Source of the DNA: a bacterium
GTDB lineage: Bacteria; Patescibacteriota; CPR2; UBA1875; JAJYID01
Reading direction: 5' to 3'
Assembly (NCBI GenBank): GCA_021787535.1
Contig: JAJYLR010000001.1
Location: 383,687 to 447,686, forward strand
Length of the DNA: 64,000 bases
Under the pieces are notes generated by a model. That model saw only the letters and a list, made by a program, of their open reading frames with translations. It was not told the DNA's origin and did not search any database. Below, piece by piece: positions 67 to 63,936 of the stretch (within the stretch, counting starts at the first letter, position 1; the number at the start of each line of letters is the position of its first letter). Made by a program: the position numbers and the translations under genes.

Positions 67-91
67 AATAATTAGGGTTTTGATTCTGGAC

Positions 92-113
92 AAGCCAGAA
101 TGACTTGTTTAGG
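92..113. repeat. Family-A palindromic element in reverse orientation ('gattctggacaagccagaatgac')
   Basis: Reverse complement of 'gtcattctggcttgtccagaatc', which is also found at 41801 and 63862. Hairpin ATTCTGG/CCAGAAT. Confidence 0.7.
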
Positions 114-5025: not shown

Positions 5026-5042
5026 AATACTTTCCTAGTTTC

Positions 5043-5065
5043 GTCACTGCGGCCTGTCCAGAATC
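5043..5065. repeat. Degenerate family-A element ('gtcactgcggcctgtccagaatc')
   Basis: 19 of 23 nt identical to the family-A consensus. The palindrome is lost. Confidence 0.5.
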
Positions 5066-5078
5066 TTATTTTATTTTA

Positions 5079-5104
5079 GATTCCCGCCTCCGCGGGAATG
5101 ACAG
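5079..5104. repeat. Family-B palindromic element in reverse orientation ('gattcccgcctccgcgggaatgacag')
   Basis: Reverse complement of 'ctgtcattcccgcggaggcgggaatc'. Stem ATTCCCGC/GCGGGAAT. Confidence 0.7.
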
Positions 5105-9144: not shown

Positions 9145-10389
9145 ATGAAACTAAGTAAACTTTTTTCCAAGACAACGAAAAACATTTCAAAGAAAGCTGA
9201 AAGCAAAAATCATGAGCTTTTAGTTCGGGCCGGATATGTGGATCAGCTAATGGCCGGTGTCTATACATATTTGCCGCTAGGGAAAAAGGTACTCGAAAAA
9301 ATTGAGGATATTATTCGCGAAGAAATGATTGAGATCGGCGGCCAGGAGATTTTAATGCCAGCGCTCACGCCTTATGAAAACTGGCAGAAAACAGGCAGAT
9401 GGGATACTATGGACGATCTTTACCGTTTTACAAGCTATTATTCTAAAAATAAAGTGGCACTCGGCGGTACTCATGAGGAAGTGGTAACACCTCTGGCTAA
9501 AAAATATATCCTATCTTACAAAGATTTGCCAAAGTATGTTTTTCAAATTCAAACAAAATTTAGAGATGAGAAAAGGCCAAAGTCAGGAATATTGCGAGGC
9601 AGAGAATTTAGAATGAAAGATTTGTATTCATTTCATACTGATGAGCAAGATTTGAATAAATATTATGACAAGGTTATTAAAGCTTATGAAAAAATTTTCA
9701 AAAGGTTTGGTTTGGGCGATAAAACATATCTTACATTTGCGTCTGGCGGAACATTTTCCAAATTCTCGCATGAATTTCAAACAGAGTCTCCAGTGGGCGA
9801 AGATACGATCTTTGTTTGCAGAAGATGTAAAATGGGTATAAATAAAGAAATCATCCTAACCCAGAAGGAGTGCCCGAAATGCGGTAAAACTGATCTTGAG
9901 GAAACTCGGGCAATAGAGGTTGCTAATATTTTCAAACTTAAAGATAAATTCACTAAACCTTTTAAGGCGATATATCTAGATAAAAAAGGCAAAGAAAATA
10001 CTGTGCTTATGGGATGTTATGGGATTGGGCCGTCAAGGATTATGGGAACTATAGTTGAAGTGCTGTCTGATGAAAAAGGTATTGTGTGGCCAAAAGAAGT
10101 TGCCCCATATCAGATTCATCTTATCAATCTCAAGGAAAGCGAGGAGGCAGAAAGGATCTATAATAAACTGCAGGCAGCCGGCTTCGATATTTTGTGGGAT
10201 GATAGAGATGAGTCGGCTGGTATTAAATTTCAAGACGCTGATTTACTCGGAATACCATTAAGGGTAGTGATTACTGAAAAATCTTTGAAATCCGGCGGTT
10301 ATGAGCTAAAAGTAAGAAACAGAACAAAGATTGAAATCTTAAATGAAAAAAATTTAATTAAAAAAGTAAAAGATTATTATGCTAAATAG
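9145..10389 (+). CDS. proS: Prolyl-tRNA synthetase: short form without the editing (INS) domain, with a CxxC…CxxC insertion
   Basis: N-terminus 'LVRAGYVDQLMAGVYTYLPLG' and class II motifs. Only 414 aa. Carries 'CRRCKMG…CPKCGK'. Confidence 0.8.
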   Translation: MKLSKLFSKTTKNISKKAESKNHELLVRAGYVDQLMAGVYTYLPLGKKVLEKIEDIIREEMIEIGGQEILMPALTPYENWQKTGRWDTMDDLYRFTSYYSKNKVALGGTHEEVVTPLAKKYILSYKDLPKYVFQIQTKFRDEKRPKSGILRGREFRMKDLYSFHTDEQDLNKYYDKVIKAYEKIFKRFGLGDKTYLTFASGGTFSKFSHEFQTESPVGEDTIFVCRRCKMGINKEIILTQKECPKCGKTDLEETRAIEVANIFKLKDKFTKPFKAIYLDKKGKENTVLMGCYGIGPSRIMGTIVEVLSDEKGIVWPKEVAPYQIHLINLKESEEAERIYNKLQAAGFDILWDDRDESAGIKFQDADLLGIPLRVVITEKSLKSGGYELKVRNRTKIEILNEKNLIKKVKDYYAK

Positions 10390-16463: not shown

Positions 16464-16492
16464 TTGACCAATTTTTTAATATTTGTTAAAAT
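16464..16492 (+). promoter_or_regulatory. Sigma70-type promoter (TTGACC, 17 nt spacer, TAAAAT) with a hairpin leader upstream of rplJ
   Basis: Seen directly. Downstream is 'gtagcagcgaaagcttaatttgctac', a hairpin that may be the L10 leader. Confidence 0.55.
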
Positions 16493-16609
16493 GTTAATTA
16501 GCCAAAGACAGTAGCAGCGAAAGCTTAATTTGCTACCGAGGTAAAGATTTAGATAATTTTTATTCATCTTTGGTTTGTCCAAAGATTTTTAATTTATAGG
16601 AAATAAAGT

Positions 16610-17142: not shown

Positions 17143-17168
17143 TGTCATTCCCGCGCAGGCGGGAATCT
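17143..17168. repeat. Family-B palindromic element ('ctgtcattcccgcgcaggcgggaatc')
   Basis: 8-bp stem ATTCCCGC/GCGGGAAT with loop GCAG, 6 nt after the rplJ stop. Confidence 0.7.
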
Positions 17169-17223
17169 ATAAGATAAGTAATTATTATTAAAAATTTAAA
17201 GTAATTAAAAAAGGAGAATAAAA

Positions 17224-18703: not shown

Positions 18704-18763
18704 ACAAGTGCAAAAGGGCCACTCTCTTAAGAGAGTGGCCCTAATCGTTTCCTTGTCTTACCA

Positions 18764-27344: not shown

Positions 27345-27375
27345 CAAAAACCCCGGATTTTCCGGGGTTTTGTTT
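27345..27375. terminator. Bidirectional intrinsic terminator between dnaB and the convergent sigma factor gene
   Basis: 'aaaaaccccggattttccggggttttgtttt'. Confidence 0.7.
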
Positions 27376-38866: not shown

Positions 38867-38892
38867 CTGTCCTTCCCGCGAAAGCGGGAATC
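38867..38892. repeat. Family-B palindromic element ('ctgtccttcccgcgaaagcgggaatc')
   Basis: Stem TTCCCGC/GCGGGAA with loop GAAA, 12 nt after the ybaB stop. Confidence 0.65.
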
Positions 38893-38944
38893 CAGACAAT
38901 TAACGATTTAGATTTCCGACCAAGTCGGGAATGGTATATATGAT

Positions 38945-40040: not shown

Positions 40041-41801
40041 TTGAGGTGGTTTATGAAAGATTTATGGAGAATATTTAAGTTAGCTTCCGCAAAGAAAAAA
40101 CTGACTGTACTGATATTTCTTACAGCAATACTCCAAATGATAGTGGAGGCGCTTTTTCCTATTTCCTTAAAGCTAATTTTTGACCTCCTGCAAAACCAGT
40201 TCCGAACCGGTTCCACGCATATCAACTTTAATATTTTCATTTTACTTATCGGCTTTTATGCATTTCTTGTGATTATACAGATCTTAACACGTCTCTGGGA
40301 CGCTTACTATGAATCAAAATGGTGGATAGAAACTAGAAATATAGTCTCCCTGAAAATTTTTCATCACTTAGAAAATCTATCTATATCGTTTTGGGAAAAA
40401 ACTTCTACCGGAAAAATAGTGGAAAAAATCGCAGGCGGAGTAAATGATATGCAAGGCATTATGGAAGACGTCTTACAGGAAATCTTCCCGCAATTTATAT
40501 ATATCATCTTCGCACTAGTGGTTTTAATGTGGGTCAGCTGGATCTTTGGATTGATAATCCTAGTGGGAGTACCTATTTTCGTCATTACAAGTATTAAGTT
40601 TACCAAACCTCTGAATACTCTTCAAGATGAGGTAAGAGATGAGTTTGAGAAAGCTGGGAAAGTCAGAGTTGAAACGTTCACTAATATTAAAACTGTCAAA
40701 TCCTTTGCAACAGAACTCAGACATGCGCGTGAACTGCAAAAAGCATTGGAGAAATCTAAAAGCAAGGCATTAAAACGAATGAAACTTTATGTGAGAATGA
40801 ATATCATCAGATTTGGTATTATGAACGGATCAAGGATCGCAATGCTTACAGTCGGCGTTTACTGGGTATCTCAGGGGAAAATTACTGTAGGTACTTTAGT
40901 GATGATCTGGAGTTATATCACCGGTATTTACTCGCCGCTTTGGACTCTAAGCAGAATCTACGATCGTATACAGCAAGATTTAAGAAGTATAAGAAGGATT
41001 TTTGAGATATTAGATACCGTACCGGAAATTCAGGACATGAAAGGCGCATATAATTTAGAAAAAATAAAAGGAAGCATCAAACTTGAAGATTTAAAATTTA
41101 GGTATAAAAACCGTAATGTTATAAATGGTATTGACCTTGAAATCCCAGAGGGAAAAGTTATGGCTGTGGTTGGCAAAAGCGGTGTTGGGAAATCCACATT
41201 AGTAAAATTACTTTTAAGGTTCTATGATCCTCAGGAAGGTAAAATCTTAGTTGATGGATATGATATTAAGGACGTTACTCAAAAATCGTTGCGCGAAAAC
41301 ATCGGTGTGGTTTTGCAAGACACAGCGATATTTAACGATACTGCATACAACAATATTGCCTATGCTAATCCTAAAACCAGCAAGAATGAAGTTCTAAAGG
41401 CCGCAAAAACTGCCCATGCACATGATTTTGTCAAGAATCTTCCGGAAGGATATGATACTATTGTTGGTGAAAGAGGAGTAAAGCTGTCTGGCGGCGAACA
41501 GCAGAGAATAAATATTGCCCGTGCAATTCTGAAAAATCCTCCTATTCTGATCCTAGATGAAGCCACATCTCATCTTGATTCAGAAAGCGAAAAACTAATA
41601 CAAGATGCTCTGTGGAAACTGATCAAAGGCAGAACATCTATCATTATTGCCCATCGGCTCTCAACCATCATGAAGGCGGATTTAATAGTAGTACTCGATA
41701 AGGGTAAAATAGCAGAAATAGGCACACATGACGAACTAGTGAGACACGAGGGAATATATAATAAGCTGTTTAAAATCCAGTCGGGAAGTTATTTAAAATA
41801 G
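40041..41801 (+). CDS. ABC transporter permease/ATPase fusion (MsbA-like exporter)
   Basis: N-terminal 6-TM domain plus a nucleotide-binding domain with GKSGVGKST, LSGGEQQR and ILILDEATS. Confidence 0.9.
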   Translation: MRWFMKDLWRIFKLASAKKKLTVLIFLTAILQMIVEALFPISLKLIFDLLQNQFRTGSTHINFNIFILLIGFYAFLVIIQILTRLWDAYYESKWWIETRNIVSLKIFHHLENLSISFWEKTSTGKIVEKIAGGVNDMQGIMEDVLQEIFPQFIYIIFALVVLMWVSWIFGLIILVGVPIFVITSIKFTKPLNTLQDEVRDEFEKAGKVRVETFTNIKTVKSFATELRHARELQKALEKSKSKALKRMKLYVRMNIIRFGIMNGSRIAMLTVGVYWVSQGKITVGTLVMIWSYITGIYSPLWTLSRIYDRIQQDLRSIRRIFEILDTVPEIQDMKGAYNLEKIKGSIKLEDLKFRYKNRNVINGIDLEIPEGKVMAVVGKSGVGKSTLVKLLLRFYDPQEGKILVDGYDIKDVTQKSLRENIGVVLQDTAIFNDTAYNNIAYANPKTSKNEVLKAAKTAHAHDFVKNLPEGYDTIVGERGVKLSGGEQQRINIARAILKNPPILILDEATSHLDSESEKLIQDALWKLIKGRTSIIIAHRLSTIMKADLIVVLDKGKIAEIGTHDELVRHEGIYNKLFKIQSGSYLK

Positions 41802-41823
41802 TCATTCTGGCTTGTCCAGAATC
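41801..41823. repeat. Family-A palindromic element ('gtcattctggcttgtccagaatc')
   Basis: Overlaps the ABC gene stop codon. Stem ATTCTGG/CCAGAAT with loop CTTGT. Confidence 0.7.
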
Positions 41824-44067: not shown

Positions 44068-45029
44068 GTAAGTTTAGTTGGAATAAACTCAATAAACCTT
44101 TTTTTGTAATGGCGCCGATGGATGGGATTACTTCATCTCCTTTTCGGCGGGTGGTGAAAAGGTGCGGCGCAGATGTGGTCTTCTCTGAAATGATTGCGGC
44201 GGAAGCGGTTTATTATAAATCAAAGAAAACGCTTGCCATGATGAACTTTCATGAAGAGGAACGTCCCTATATTGTCCAAATTTTCGGCAAAGATACAGAG
44301 AAGATGGTGGGAGCGGTGCAGTATATCGAAAAGGAAGTTAAACCCGACGGCATAGACATAAACATGGGTTGTCCGGCCAAGAAAGTTGTCTCCGGCGGAC
44401 GCGGATCGGCGCTTTTGCTCGATCCTGAAAAAGCGGTCGAAATAGTCAGAACTGTGCGAAGTGCCACAAAGCTGCCTTTATCAGTTAAAACTCGCATCGG
44501 TTGGGAAAAGTTTAATATCCAGCCGCTTGTCAAAGAGTTCGAGAATGCTGGCATTGATGCGCTGACAATTCATGGCAGGACAAAGACGCAAGGTTTTGCC
44601 GGAGAGCCGGACTTAGATGCACTTAAGGAAATTAAGAAATTAGTCAAAATACCTGTTATCGGAAATGGGGGAATTAACTCGGTGGAAGATGCGCAAAAAA
44701 TGCTCAGCTTCACCGGCTGCGATGGCATAATGGTCGCCCGCGGCGCCCTCGGAAATCCCTGGATATTTAAGTCATTACATTTTCTTCGTCATTCTGGCTC
44801 AGTCCAGAATCTTGACTACAAACCCAACTTTGAAGAAATACGAAATCTAGCCCTTTTGCACCTGCAAATGAATATTGAGGAGTTTGGCCCCAAAAAAGGC
44901 ATTTTTGACATGCGAAAACATTACGGCTGGTATTTCAAGGGCTTTCCCGGTGCTAGCGAACTGCGCAAAAAACTTGTTCTTGCTGAAACAAAGAATGAGA
45001 TAAGATCGATCATAGAAAAAATGGGGTAA
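44064..45029 (+). CDS. tRNA-dihydrouridine synthase
   Basis: 'MAPMDGITSSPFRR', a catalytic 'NMGCP', and a TIM barrel. Contains an in-frame family-A element at 44789-44812. Confidence 0.85.
   Translation: MSKFSWNKLNKPFFVMAPMDGITSSPFRRVVKRCGADVVFSEMIAAEAVYYKSKKTLAMMNFHEEERPYIVQIFGKDTEKMVGAVQYIEKEVKPDGIDINMGCPAKKVVSGGRGSALLLDPEKAVEIVRTVRSATKLPLSVKTRIGWEKFNIQPLVKEFENAGIDALTIHGRTKTQGFAGEPDLDALKEIKKLVKIPVIGNGGINSVEDAQKMLSFTGCDGIMVARGALGNPWIFKSLHFLRHSGSVQNLDYKPNFEEIRNLALLHLQMNIEEFGPKKGIFDMRKHYGWYFKGFPGASELRKKLVLAETKNEIRSIIEKMG
44789..44812. repeat. Family-A-like palindrome inside the dus CDS ('gtcattctggctcagtccagaatc'), encoding RHSGSVQNL
   Basis: 21 of 24 nt match the intergenic family-A elements and the hairpin is preserved. 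Confidence 0.5.
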
Positions 45030-45056
45030 ACCTGCATTACCCCATTTTAGGTTCTT

Positions 45057-45642: not shown

Positions 45643-45716
45643 TCCCGGGTCGGCTAATGGTAGGCCGCAAGGTTCTGGCCCTTGTAATCTTGGTTCGAGT
45701 CCAAGCCCGGGAGCCA
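45643..45716 (+). tRNA. tRNA-Gln (anticodon CUG), CCA encoded
   Basis: Cloverleaf folded by hand: acceptor tcccggg/cccggga with U1:A72, AC stem caagg/ccttg with loop ttCTGgc, T-arm cttgg-ttcgagt-ccaag, discriminator G, CCA. Confidence 0.75.
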
Positions 45717-45996: not shown

Positions 45997-47454
45997 CTAA
46001 TATCCAAGAATTCCTATTTTTTTGATTTGTTTCCTAATCTCAGTGCGATCAACATTCACATATTTTCTATCATATTCCTCTGCGGTCATAGATTGCCCAT
46101 CCCTTAAAGCAAGTACGGGAAAACCTAAAACCATCCTCATGAACTTTATATCAGAGTAAAAAAAGTTTTCTCCTTTTAAAATAATTTGACGATCTTGAAT
46201 TTCGTATTTTACATTTAAGTTTAAAGTATTTATCAGTTTCTTTATTTCTTTAGCATTTGGTTTTCTAAAAGATTTATCGTGGCACTTTGCCTTCTGTTCT
46301 TTTGGACAGGATGAGGAGCAATAATATTCCTTCCTGACCCATTGCGTATTATAGTCGGCTTCTTTAAAAAGATAACTGATTGCACATGAAGTTTTTTTAA
46401 AATACGGTATCTTCGCACCTTGAAGCATACTATCAACTCGTGCGCGCGTATCCGCAGGCATTTGTTTTAGAGAATCATGAATGTTGAGACCGATATCATA
46501 TGACGGATCAACATAGAGTCCTTTTTTAGCCATATATTCAACTGTGTTGATATCAAGTTTAACCGAAGATCTGACTATGCAATCAAAATAATTTTCACCA
46601 AGTTCTATAATTCTCTTCACTGTTTTCTTATTATCGTTTACATCCTTTATAATCGGCCGAAAGTATAGAACTTTTTTTAGTTTGGAATTTTTGAGATTTT
46701 TCATTGTTGCTAATCTCCGATCATTGATCACATTTTCATATTTCTTAGGCAGACAAGAAAAGGTGACAAATATAACCAGACGAATATATTTATAGCTTTC
46801 AAGTTTCTTTATTAAATTTTTTGATAAATATTCTTTAGTGATAAGCCCGACAACATTTGAGATTTTCATTTTCTCCAAACCGTCTAAAATCTCAAATGTT
46901 GTTTCTGTAACCCCTGTCTGAAAAGGGTCAGTGGCACTATTGTGAATAGCTAAGGGGACGCGAGGGTGATAATATTTATGTCTTTTGAGCGCTTTAAGAA
47001 TTGTTTGAGGATTATATATTTGCTTGGGAATAAACTTGTCCTTTATATCCCAACCATGTTTATAACAATAAACACAATTATTTCTACAACCAGCGATAGC
47101 ATTGATCGATAGAAAATTTTTCGCTAAAACTATAGGTTCCAAAGTAACTTTTCTGTTTTTTGAATCCCTTTGACTCTCTCTTTTCCTATATTTTTGCAAA
47201 CTTCTTTCGAGCTCATTTTTTAAATCAATATCATATATGTTTGCCAAACTAATCATAGAATAGAAAGCATCACCCAATTCCCTTGCAAGATCAGGATTAT
47301 AGATATGCTTTCTTTTACCATAGTTGGTCAGTTCTAAAACTTCTTTTGCGACCTCACCGACTTCGCTTGCTAAGTCCAGACAACAAAGTTCCGGTGTCGA
47401 GACAAGATTAAGTGCTCTTTGTACTTTTTGTACATTTTCCTGCAGAGTCTTCAT
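45997..47454 (-). CDS. MazG-like NTP pyrophosphohydrolase domain fused to an SplB-like radical SAM domain
   Basis: N-terminus 'EVGEVAKEV…ELGDAFYSMISLANIYDIDL' (MazG E-x2-E…E-x2-D), then 'AIAGCRNNCVYCY' (CxxxCxxC), and a C-terminal 'CSSSCPKEQKAKCHDKS'. Confidence 0.6.
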   Translation of the reverse strand: MKTLQENVQKVQRALNLVSTPELCCLDLASEVGEVAKEVLELTNYGKRKHIYNPDLARELGDAFYSMISLANIYDIDLKNELERSLQKYRKRESQRDSKNRKVTLEPIVLAKNFLSINAIAGCRNNCVYCYKHGWDIKDKFIPKQIYNPQTILKALKRHKYYHPRVPLAIHNSATDPFQTGVTETTFEILDGLEKMKISNVVGLITKEYLSKNLIKKLESYKYIRLVIFVTFSCLPKKYENVINDRRLATMKNLKNSKLKKVLYFRPIIKDVNDNKKTVKRIIELGENYFDCIVRSSVKLDINTVEYMAKKGLYVDPSYDIGLNIHDSLKQMPADTRARVDSMLQGAKIPYFKKTSCAISYLFKEADYNTQWVRKEYYCSSSCPKEQKAKCHDKSFRKPNAKEIKKLINTLNLNVKYEIQDRQIILKGENFFYSDIKFMRMVLGFPVLALRDGQSMTAEEYDRKYVNVDRTEIRKQIKKIGILGY

Positions 47455-62259: not shown

Positions 62260-62460
62260 TAAAACTCAAGCATAAAATAACCAAAATACTAGCATTTTAT
62301 TTGGTTATTTATACTAATGAAAACCTAAAGCACCAGGCATATATTATATTTGACGCCAGCAAGACGAGGGCATACCTTCCCAAACACTCCCAGTGAGTGA
62401 GTCTGGAGTTCAAGGAAGCCTAGAAGAAGGCTTCCTAGTATATATCCTTACAGAGCAGAA

Positions 62461-62490
62461 AATGGCGGCTTTTCCGTAGCCGCCATTTCT
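62461..62490 (+). terminator. Strong hairpin (aaatggcggct…agccgccattt), terminator-like
   Basis: 11-bp stem. Preceded by two further hairpins at 62385-62436. Confidence 0.5.
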
Positions 62491-63861: not shown

Positions 63862-63884
63862 GTCATTCTGGCTTGTCCAGAATC
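63862..63884. repeat. Family-A palindromic element ('gtcattctggcttgtccagaatc')
   Basis: Identical to the 41801 copy, 14 nt after the serS stop. Confidence 0.7.
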
Positions 63885-63936
63885 CAAATCTTATTAAATA
63901 GATTCCGGATCAAGTCCGGCAGTGAAGGAGAGAAAA

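Follow-up and report, generated by a model that had tools for sequence, protein, structure and literature searches.

Dispersed hairpins of a Patescibacteriota genome as probable Ssn-related repeats with a CTGG-stem variant

Within a 64-kb stretch of a Patescibacteriota genome of 39.5% GC (contig JAJYLR010000001.1, positions 383,687 to 447,686; hereafter the window, whose own positions serve as coordinates throughout), we analysed a dispersed 23-mer, GTCATTCTGGCTTGTCCAGAATC, together with the family of small hairpins to which it belongs. We conclude, at a probability of roughly 0.7, that these elements are Ssn-related hairpin repeats, i.e. members of the superfamily of NTS/dRS3 and CGTC-tagged repetitive extragenic palindromes (REPs), and that they are probably cut as single-stranded DNA (ssDNA) by an Ssn nuclease encoded elsewhere in the genome. 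The invariant parts of the units correspond to the positions that SsnA, the Ssn nuclease of Neisseria meningitidis, reads in its own repeat, and the variable part covaries as a stem.

The exact 23-mer occurs three times in the window, at 82-104 (-), 41801-41823 (+) and 63862-63884 (+), where no copy is expected, and it was absent from all 100 dinucleotide-preserving shuffles of the window. The identity of the latter two copies, first noticed in an earlier inspection of the letters (the sequence-only reading), is thus borne out. A pattern fixing only the flanks, GTCATTC-N9-12-GAATC, gave six matches against 0.01 expected and added CCGC-stem hairpins at 5079-5102 (-) and 17144-17167 (+) to the CTGG-stem units, and allowing one mismatch retrieved an additional hairpin at 38869-38892 (+). 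The family thereby amounts to ten units, distributed over seven sites of the 64 kb; five of these units lie beyond the CTGG copies and combine CCGC-type stems with the same flanks, GTC-ATTC...GAAT-C. What the sequence-only reading had set apart as a "family A" is consequently one stem variant of a superfamily that includes the CCGC-stem hairpins of the same window. The stem ATTCTGG/CCAGAAT forms the proposed hairpin with 7 bp and a folding energy as ssDNA of -5.2 kcal/mol (z = -3.7), and the window units as a whole have stems of 7-8 bp and energies from -5.2 to -8.9 kcal/mol (z about -3 to -4). GTC stands 5' of the palindrome in eight of the ten units, the exceptions being the decayed partners at 38911 and 63901; the GAAT-C end is kept in every unit that matches the flank pattern, and both GTC and C are intact in these six. 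Three pairs of units form inverted doublets with their GTC tags facing outward (5043-5102, 38869-38935 and 63862-63925), separated by AT-rich spacers of 13-18 nt.

A search of species-representative genomes (596 Gb) for GTCATTCTGG-N5-CCAGAATC revealed the pattern in at least 119 stretches from several phyla, including members of the Patescibacteria, Nitrospirota, Acidobacteriaceae, Rhodanobacteraceae, Bacteroidota and Ignavibacteriaceae. The original description of a small dispersed repeat resembling REPs or miniature inverted-repeat transposable elements (MITEs) is upheld. A low-GC class with the loop CTTGT is distributed over many Patescibacteria lineages, Nitrospirota/Thermodesulfovibrionia and some Gammaproteobacteria, Bacteroidota, Ignavibacteriaceae and Nitrospinota; the identical 23-mer with this loop makes up 47 of the matches listed, compared with about 0.02 expected in 596 Gb under uniform composition. 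Among the low-GC matches listed, 18 of 63 are mixed CTGG+CCCG inverted doublets, typically with GATTCCCGACAAGCGGGAATGAC as partner, in the same arrangement as in the window, and locus L016 aligns with window positions 5040-5103 at 81%. The high-GC class of the Acidobacteriaceae and Rhodanobacteraceae has loops CGNAG and a conserved 3' extension, TCCGTATTTG. This version, GTCATTCTGGCG(A/C/T)AGCCAGAATC with the extension, was encountered in Acidobacteriaceae/Granulicella and Rhodanobacteraceae loci (L009, L011, L013-L015, L037, L039 and others), once as a tandem array of four copies spaced about 37 nt apart (L116:61-230), and appears to be a larger composite repeat of which the same hairpin is the building block.

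Covariation was assessed on units defined by their outer flanks only, excluding the stem that had been used for fetching. The inner 3 bp were fully complementary in 34 of 42 units and represented five stem types, compared with about 0.7 units expected by chance; what is conserved is the hairpin, and its sequence is variable. Among ten near-identical Woykebacteria contigs, no strain-level insertion polymorphism of the hairpin was seen, the sole indel being a scaffold gap of Ns.

Clustering of open reading frames (ORFs) within 2 kb of the motif in the 119 loci listed returned a sole motif-linked recurrent family, namely small GIY-YIG proteins (PF01541). In three of these motif-first loci (L070, L078 and L104), genes of about 96 aa are bracketed by hairpins with outward tags: the 96-codon gene of L070 is exactly enclosed by GTCATTCTGGCTTGGCCAGAATC and its inverted copy, and L078 and L104 are similar. 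A second sample of loci, collected via protein homologues and hence independent of the motif, showed hairpins on both sides of the gene in all seven cases (L120, L130, L132, L143, L145, L147 and L149), so that the hairpin-gene-hairpin arrangement was present in 10/10 inspected loci of other genomes; it has no counterpart in the window. The proposal of the sequence-only reading that the hairpins are targets of a structure-specific nuclease gains weight from this bracketing of full-length SsnA homologues and may well apply to the window copies. The cassette occupies a different genomic context in each lineage. Woykebacteria contigs share the gene order ybaB-recR...cysS...dus with the window (56% identity for RecR, 50% for CysS) and carry the cassette directly after recR, where the window has none.

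At the 3' end of the GIY-YIG gene in L120, L130 and L143 we found the reverse complement of the exact GTCATTCTGGCTTGTCCAGAATC, which encodes the last residues and the stop codon (...ILDKPE*), a terminus shared by 28 of 120 GIY-YIG homologues. The 5' end of the cassette is usually a long-loop hairpin, for example GTCATTCTGGTAAGCGAAGCGCAYCCAGAATC, unlike the 23-mer at the 3' end, and the two cassette ends are therefore asymmetric. Long-loop hairpins of the form GTCATTCTGG-TAAGCGAAGCGCAY-CCAGAATC recur upstream of the GIY-YIG start (L120:9955-9986, L132:2962-2993 and 9882-9921, L143, L149), and compensated stem variants were seen in L143 (ATCCTGG/CCAGGAT) and in L132 and L149 (ACTCTGG/CCAGAGT). 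The gene in L145 is flanked by CCCG-stem, NTS-like hairpins, and thus both stem types of the window are tied to one protein family. Three tandem CCCG-stem hairpins, ctgGATTCCCGATAAAGNCCTTCGGGAATGACgaag, follow the GIY-YIG gene of this locus (L145:1792-1925), resembling the NTS clusters around Neisseria ssnA.

The cassette proteins measure 86-110 aa and match PF01541 as their only Pfam family, while searches of NCBIfam and PADLOC gave no useful family for them and their nearest solved structures were UPF0213 proteins at merely E = 0.003. Membership of the Ssn family, understood as being a single-domain GIY-YIG homologue of SsnA (cd10448 clade), was judged by PF01541 and by alignment to the gonococcal SsnA orthologue. 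This orthologue, a 94-aa ORF, has the three residues that were mutated in the SsnA study (Y6, Y17 and E64), and eight NTS cores lie within 1.5 kb of its gene; its source (L150, NZ_CP119140.1:1881678-1883156) is a PLSDB "plasmid" record that is in fact an almost unannotated 2.17-Mb N. gonorrhoeae chromosome. Over their full length, the protein of L070 and the homologue P0016 share 43% (E = 3e-27) and 52% (E = 2e-31) identity with the orthologue, respectively. Across the 120 homologues, Y18, G20, R28, H32 and E65 are conserved in at least 97% of sequences, four of them in at least 99%; the positions aligned with SsnA Y17 and E64 reach at least 99%, and the position aligned with Y6 falls under the 90% conservation cut-off. 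Judged from these alignments, we take the cassette proteins to be single-domain GIY-YIG homologues of SsnA.

SsnA of N. meningitidis was described by Chenal et al. (2025, Nat Commun) as a 94-aa single-domain GIY-YIG ssDNA nuclease, whose binding of the NTS repeat CGTCATTCCCGCGMAVGCGGGAATCYRG is confined to the forward strand as ssDNA and whose cut falls a few nucleotides 5' of the repeat (PMC11893778). The most critical base for binding is the C directly after the palindrome, cleavage depends most on the 3 nt before the palindrome, and homologues with variant motifs (NTSvar, Wolbachia) each cut their own repeat (PMC11893778). The GTC tag and the 3' C, the positions that SsnA reads, are the invariant positions of the window units, which also share the AT-first palindrome with NTS, and the unit at 17144-17167, GTCATTCCCGCGCAGGCGGGAATC, reproduces the Neisseria NTS consensus core exactly. 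Both systems have copies that are dispersed as well as clustered near genes, and a hairpin-gene-hairpin arrangement whose gene encodes a single-domain GIY-YIG protein of about 95 aa, in our case in the loci of other genomes; motifs lie near 71% of ssn genes (PMC11893778). The variant described here differs in its CTGG/CCAG stem (7 bp, 5-nt loop CTTGT) as opposed to CCGC/GCGG, in its unlike cassette ends with a 23-mer that supplies the last codons and the stop, in the frequent mixed-stem inverted doublets, and in its hosts, which are uncultured Patescibacteria, Nitrospirota and others rather than mainly the Pseudomonadati of Chenal et al. (PMC11893778).

Several observations weigh against this assignment. 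An ssn or GIY-YIG gene was not found in the 64-kb window with a 120-sequence profile hidden Markov model (HMM) applied to six frames at E <= 1, nor with a crude signature regular expression or jackhmmer. Since neither an ssn gene nor a transposase lies within the window, we infer rather than observe nuclease action at its hairpins. Among the 119 motif-first loci listed, only three have the gene within 8 kb and most copies are far from a nuclease gene, a rarity that is expected for a high-copy repeat. On the published side, cleavage was shown only for four proteobacterial Ssn homologues, and an ssn homologue is present in 81%, not all, of the genomes with more than 200 Ssn-related motifs (SRMs; PMC11893778). 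The activity of N. meningitidis SsnA was abolished when the palindrome sequence was changed with its structure kept (PMC11893778); stem sequence thus matters in Neisseria in addition to structure, and serving both stem types of the window may accordingly take either a pair of enzymes or a single one of relaxed specificity. In addition, only one of the ten window units (17143-17170) fits the published SRM search pattern, HGTCWYN(0-2)YYVSBRHN(0-5)WNVSBRGN(0-2)RNCYNB, which the CTGG units including 41801-41823 fail. As this pattern was hand-built from 29 genomes of four phyla (PMC11893778), we regard it as a search tool rather than a definition.

A second known group to which the units can be compared are the CGTC-tagged REPs of Di Nocera et al. 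(2013, BMC Genomics), with the families CGTC-1 to CGTC-4, of which CGTC-1 corresponds to dRS3 (PMC3733652). These repeats feature a CGTC or TGTC tag, a stem of 8-9 bp with A-T and T-A as first pairs, a loop of 4-5 nt and a tail with the consensus CCA; no dedicated enzyme was found for them (PMC3733652), and the GIY-YIG partner was recognised only in 2025. Likewise, the units studied here have a CGTC tag that is often TGTC, AT-first stems, 4-5 nt loops and a short unpaired tail, and they occur as singletons and inverted dimers with some intragenic copies. The CCGC-stem units of the window match CGTC-1 in their 8-bp stem and 4-nt loop. The CTGG units carry an A/T/C-GTC tag, an AT-first stem and a 5-nt loop, with a stem of 7 bp instead of 8-9 bp. 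Of the CCA tail only the first C is kept in the window units, and the phyla reported here lie outside the five listed by Di Nocera et al. (PMC3733652). According to the literature searched, the combination of CTGG stem, CTTGT loop and mixed doublets represents a new sequence member in lineages without a described Ssn system.

Nine of the ten window units are intergenic and occupy very short spacers between co-directional housekeeping genes, while the tenth lies in frame inside dus; six solo or lead units begin 0-82 nt past a stop codon. The solo exact copy at 82-104 (-) is located between the stop of a partial coding sequence (64-66) and the ATG of an ABC ATPase gene (129), and here the sequence-only reading had correctly recognised a minus-strand copy past the stop and misplaced it at 92-113. 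Its degenerate copy at 5043-5065 (+), GTCACTGCGGCCTGTCCAGAATC, is indeed a decayed CTGG-type hairpin with 77% identity to the reference, which forms the left arm of a doublet between rpmE and prfA (both -); the right arm, across a 13-nt AT-rich spacer, is the CCGC-stem hairpin GTCATTCCCGCGGAGGCGGGAATC at 5079-5102 (-) with an 8-bp stem and a 4-nt loop. The solo NTS-like CCGC-stem unit at 17144-17167 (+) starts 6 nt past the rplJ stop and upstream of rplL. An Rfam scan of the window assigned no family to the hairpins, its matches being an L10 leader (68.6 bits; 16484-16600) upstream of rplJ and one tRNA gene (45643-45713) only; with the leader ahead of rplJ, the 17144 hairpin thus sits inside the autoregulated rplJL operon, between both genes. 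Between ybaB and recR, the CCGC-stem hairpin GTCCTTCCCGCGAAAGCGGGAATC with an altered tag (38869-38892, +) is the left arm of a doublet whose decayed right arm reads GATTTCCGACCAAGTCGGGAATGGT on the plus strand (38911-38935, -), following an 18-nt spacer. The solo exact copy at 41801-41823 (+) overlaps the stop of an ABC exporter (PF00664+PF00005) as originally stated, its first G being the last base of TAG, and ends 11 nt before the cysS ATG. The exact copy at 63862-63884 (+) starts 14 nt past the serS stop, again as originally placed, and is the left arm of a doublet with a decayed CCGG-stem partner at 63901-63925 (-), plus strand GATTCCGGATCAAGTCCGGCAGTGA, which follows a 16-nt spacer and ends 12 nt before the next ATG.

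The intragenic CTGG-stem hairpin, with a 6-nt loop CTCAGT, occupies 44788-44811 (+); the sequence-only reading was right that it lies in frame in dus, where it reads RHSGSVQNL, and gave coordinates one base off (44789-44812). It falls in the linker that joins the catalytic barrel to the helical domain, a region of variable length that is 10 aa longer than in a Woykebacteria Dus and 4 aa longer than in that of T. maritima. Read directly from the sequence, the forward unit contains stop codons in none of the three frames, and an in-frame insertion into the linker is therefore plausible, if not proven. In some Woykebacteria assemblies dus is called as two ORFs (L120:19175-20216, 99+233 aa; L128:13815-14778, 105+217 aa), and in L127 it is intact with 333 aa; the split could reflect a frameshift or strain variation near codon 100 that is unrelated to the position of the window hairpin.

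A Pfam scan of the whole window revealed housekeeping genes only and no transposase (including Y1), recombinase, integrase, phage or GIY-YIG gene. One ORF at 45997-47454 (-), 485 aa, has a MazG pyrophosphohydrolase domain at its N-terminus and also matches radical SAM weakly, an unusual fusion. Long perfect hairpins with stems of 10-12 bp, flanked by A-runs and T-runs, were noted at gene ends (2604-2631, 18715-18742, 27347-27371, 45018-45048 and 62460-62488). They resemble canonical bidirectional intrinsic terminators, and the organism therefore does use ordinary terminators. For the repeat units, in contrast, an identity as intrinsic (Rho-independent) terminators was ruled out, as the forward copies are followed by no T-run, in agreement with the missing U-run of the sequence-only reading; the sole match to a terminator consensus at the hairpins is weak and on the minus strand (41822-41804).

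Among other explanations, the units might be inert relics, that is, footprints or MITE-like remnants of once-moving ssn cassettes that are tolerated in spacers after loss of the nuclease. Such a state would fit the result of the profile HMM, which detected no ssn gene in the window, the decay of four of the ten units (in the palindrome at 5043, 38911 and 63901, in the tag at 38869), the 19% of SRM-rich genomes without a homologue (PMC11893778), and the view of Di Nocera et al. that CGTC repeats may be heading for extinction (PMC3733652). It is at odds with three copies that are still identical over 23 nt at 39.5% GC, with intact GTC and C flanks in six units, with an exact 23-mer kept across phyla and with stems that covary rather than decay; together these features indicate ongoing constraint or recent spread, and we regard the relic state as a minor possibility. 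A function at the RNA level, in which transcribed hairpins shield the 3' ends of upstream mRNA, serve for processing or slightly reduce read-through, as has been suggested for classical REPs, appears improbable to us as the explanation of the family, even though the units sit in short co-directional spacers, mostly shortly after stops, 52 of 65 copies across the loci fall outside long ORFs (by a crude ORF definition), and REPs are mostly located downstream of coding regions and probably transcribed (PMC3733652). The hairpins have no U-run in a window that does contain canonical terminators (45018-45048, 27347-27371), they match no Rfam family, and neither the conserved unpaired GTC and C flanks nor the strand asymmetry has an obvious RNA rationale, whereas both match the determinants of Ssn on ssDNA. 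SsnA fails to bind its motif when this is made of RNA (PMC11893778), which also speaks against the RNA-binding protein that the sequence-only reading had named as a possible ligand, and the bracketing of GIY-YIG genes would be left unexplained. The transcription attenuator named in the same reading gains no support, the missing U-run and the position inside tight operons being the only observations that touch on it. An RNA-level role alongside Ssn is possible, the two not being mutually exclusive.

Mobilisation by a RAYT, an IS200/IS605-type Y1 transposase, as in classical REPs and REPINs and as the sequence-only reading had suspected, is very unlikely. The resemblance is real in that both are short dispersed palindromes with an unpaired tag, mostly intergenic here, that form inverted doublets as the probable mobile unit and flank a single-copy gene with its own repeats (the REPtron arrangement). 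RAYT-type REPs are nevertheless excluded by the tag and the associated gene: the tag is GTC or CGTC instead of the defining GTAG, the gene between the hairpins encodes a GIY-YIG protein instead of an HUH Y1 transposase in 10/10 inspected loci, no Y1 transposase was found in the fully Pfam-scanned window or beside the motif in the loci, and in the survey of Di Nocera et al. CGTC repeats flanked no RAYT (PMC3733652). Hardly any likelihood attaches to the idea that the units are attachment or target sites of a site-specific recombinase or phage, analogous to dRS3 with a Piv/IS110-type enzyme. In Neisseria, dRS3 is a reported phage-recombinase target for the integration of filamentous phage (PMC11893778), and the 17144 unit carries the dRS3 pattern ATTCCC-N8-GGGAAT. 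The window, however, has no recombinase, integrase or phage genes, no such gene recurs beside the motif in the 119 loci listed, and the exact 23-mer is present in only three IMG/VR contigs (L140-L142), in whose stretches the profile HMM found no GIY-YIG gene of the Ssn-like family.

For the preferred assignment as Ssn-related repeats, we propose the following mechanism. Each unit consists of an unpaired 5' GTC tag, a palindrome of 7-8 bp starting with ATTC, a loop of 4-6 nt and an unpaired 3' C. When the DNA becomes single-stranded, as in incoming transforming DNA or in replication and repair intermediates, the palindrome would fold into a hairpin. The hairpin and the 3' C would then be bound by an Ssn-family nuclease, a small protein with a single GIY-YIG domain whose gene probably lies elsewhere in the genome, and this enzyme would cleave the strand that carries the hairpin, in the forward orientation only, a few nucleotides 5' of the GTC tag. 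The cellular effect may be to limit or pattern recombination of ssDNA and/or to spread the repeats. The 23-mer with CTGG stem and CTTGT loop forms the 3' boundary of ssn cassettes in candidate-phyla bacteria, and the window copies, being solo units and gene-less inverted doublets, would derive from cassette ends as MITE-like derivatives that settled in the very short spacers of housekeeping genes and, in one case, in a protein linker able to tolerate the insertion.

More tentatively, and with rather less than even odds in our estimation, the ssn cassette could be an autonomous ssDNA-dependent mobile element with the GIY-YIG nuclease itself as "transposase". Its parts would be the long-loop CTGG hairpin, the 96-aa GIY-YIG gene and the inverted 23-mer supplying the last codons and the stop; it would have kept its 23-bp end unaltered in crossing phyla (Patescibacteria, Nitrospirota, Bacteroidota, Gammaproteobacteria), and the solo hairpins and mixed-stem doublets of the window would be non-autonomous MITEs. 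A parallel can be drawn to IS608 of the IS200/IS605 family, where a small gene likewise lies between subterminal hairpins, recognition occurs in ssDNA only and cleavage takes place a few nucleotides from the hairpin foot. There, both hairpins are read on the same strand, whereas the inverted ends of the present cassettes place them on opposite strands, and the enzyme fold is a different one; for ssn cassettes, transposition is putative. Loosely relevant is a groundwater study in which a GIY-YIG-domain gene was predicted to have passed horizontally from Patescibacteria into other bacteria (PMC12455944). If true, mobility of the cassette would provide both the missing mobilising enzyme for the orphan "CGTC" REP superfamily and a new transposon class.

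The assignment as Ssn-related repeats extends the Ssn nuclease/repeat system to genomes of candidate phyla (Patescibacteria) and Nitrospirota, and as the CTGG variant is missed by the published SRM pattern, surveys using that pattern therefore undercount the system. For the annotation of such genomes, it accounts for the small palindromes between genes and for spurious peptide tails (...ILDKPE) that keep recurring, and it offers candidate substrate/enzyme pairs for the ssDNA-cutting toolbox, for example GTCATTCTGGCTTGTCCAGAATC with P0016. Dependence on DNA uptake is commonly assumed for candidate-phyla bacteria, and their recombination could be shaped by a nuclease for which marks throughout the genome designate where incoming ssDNA is cut.

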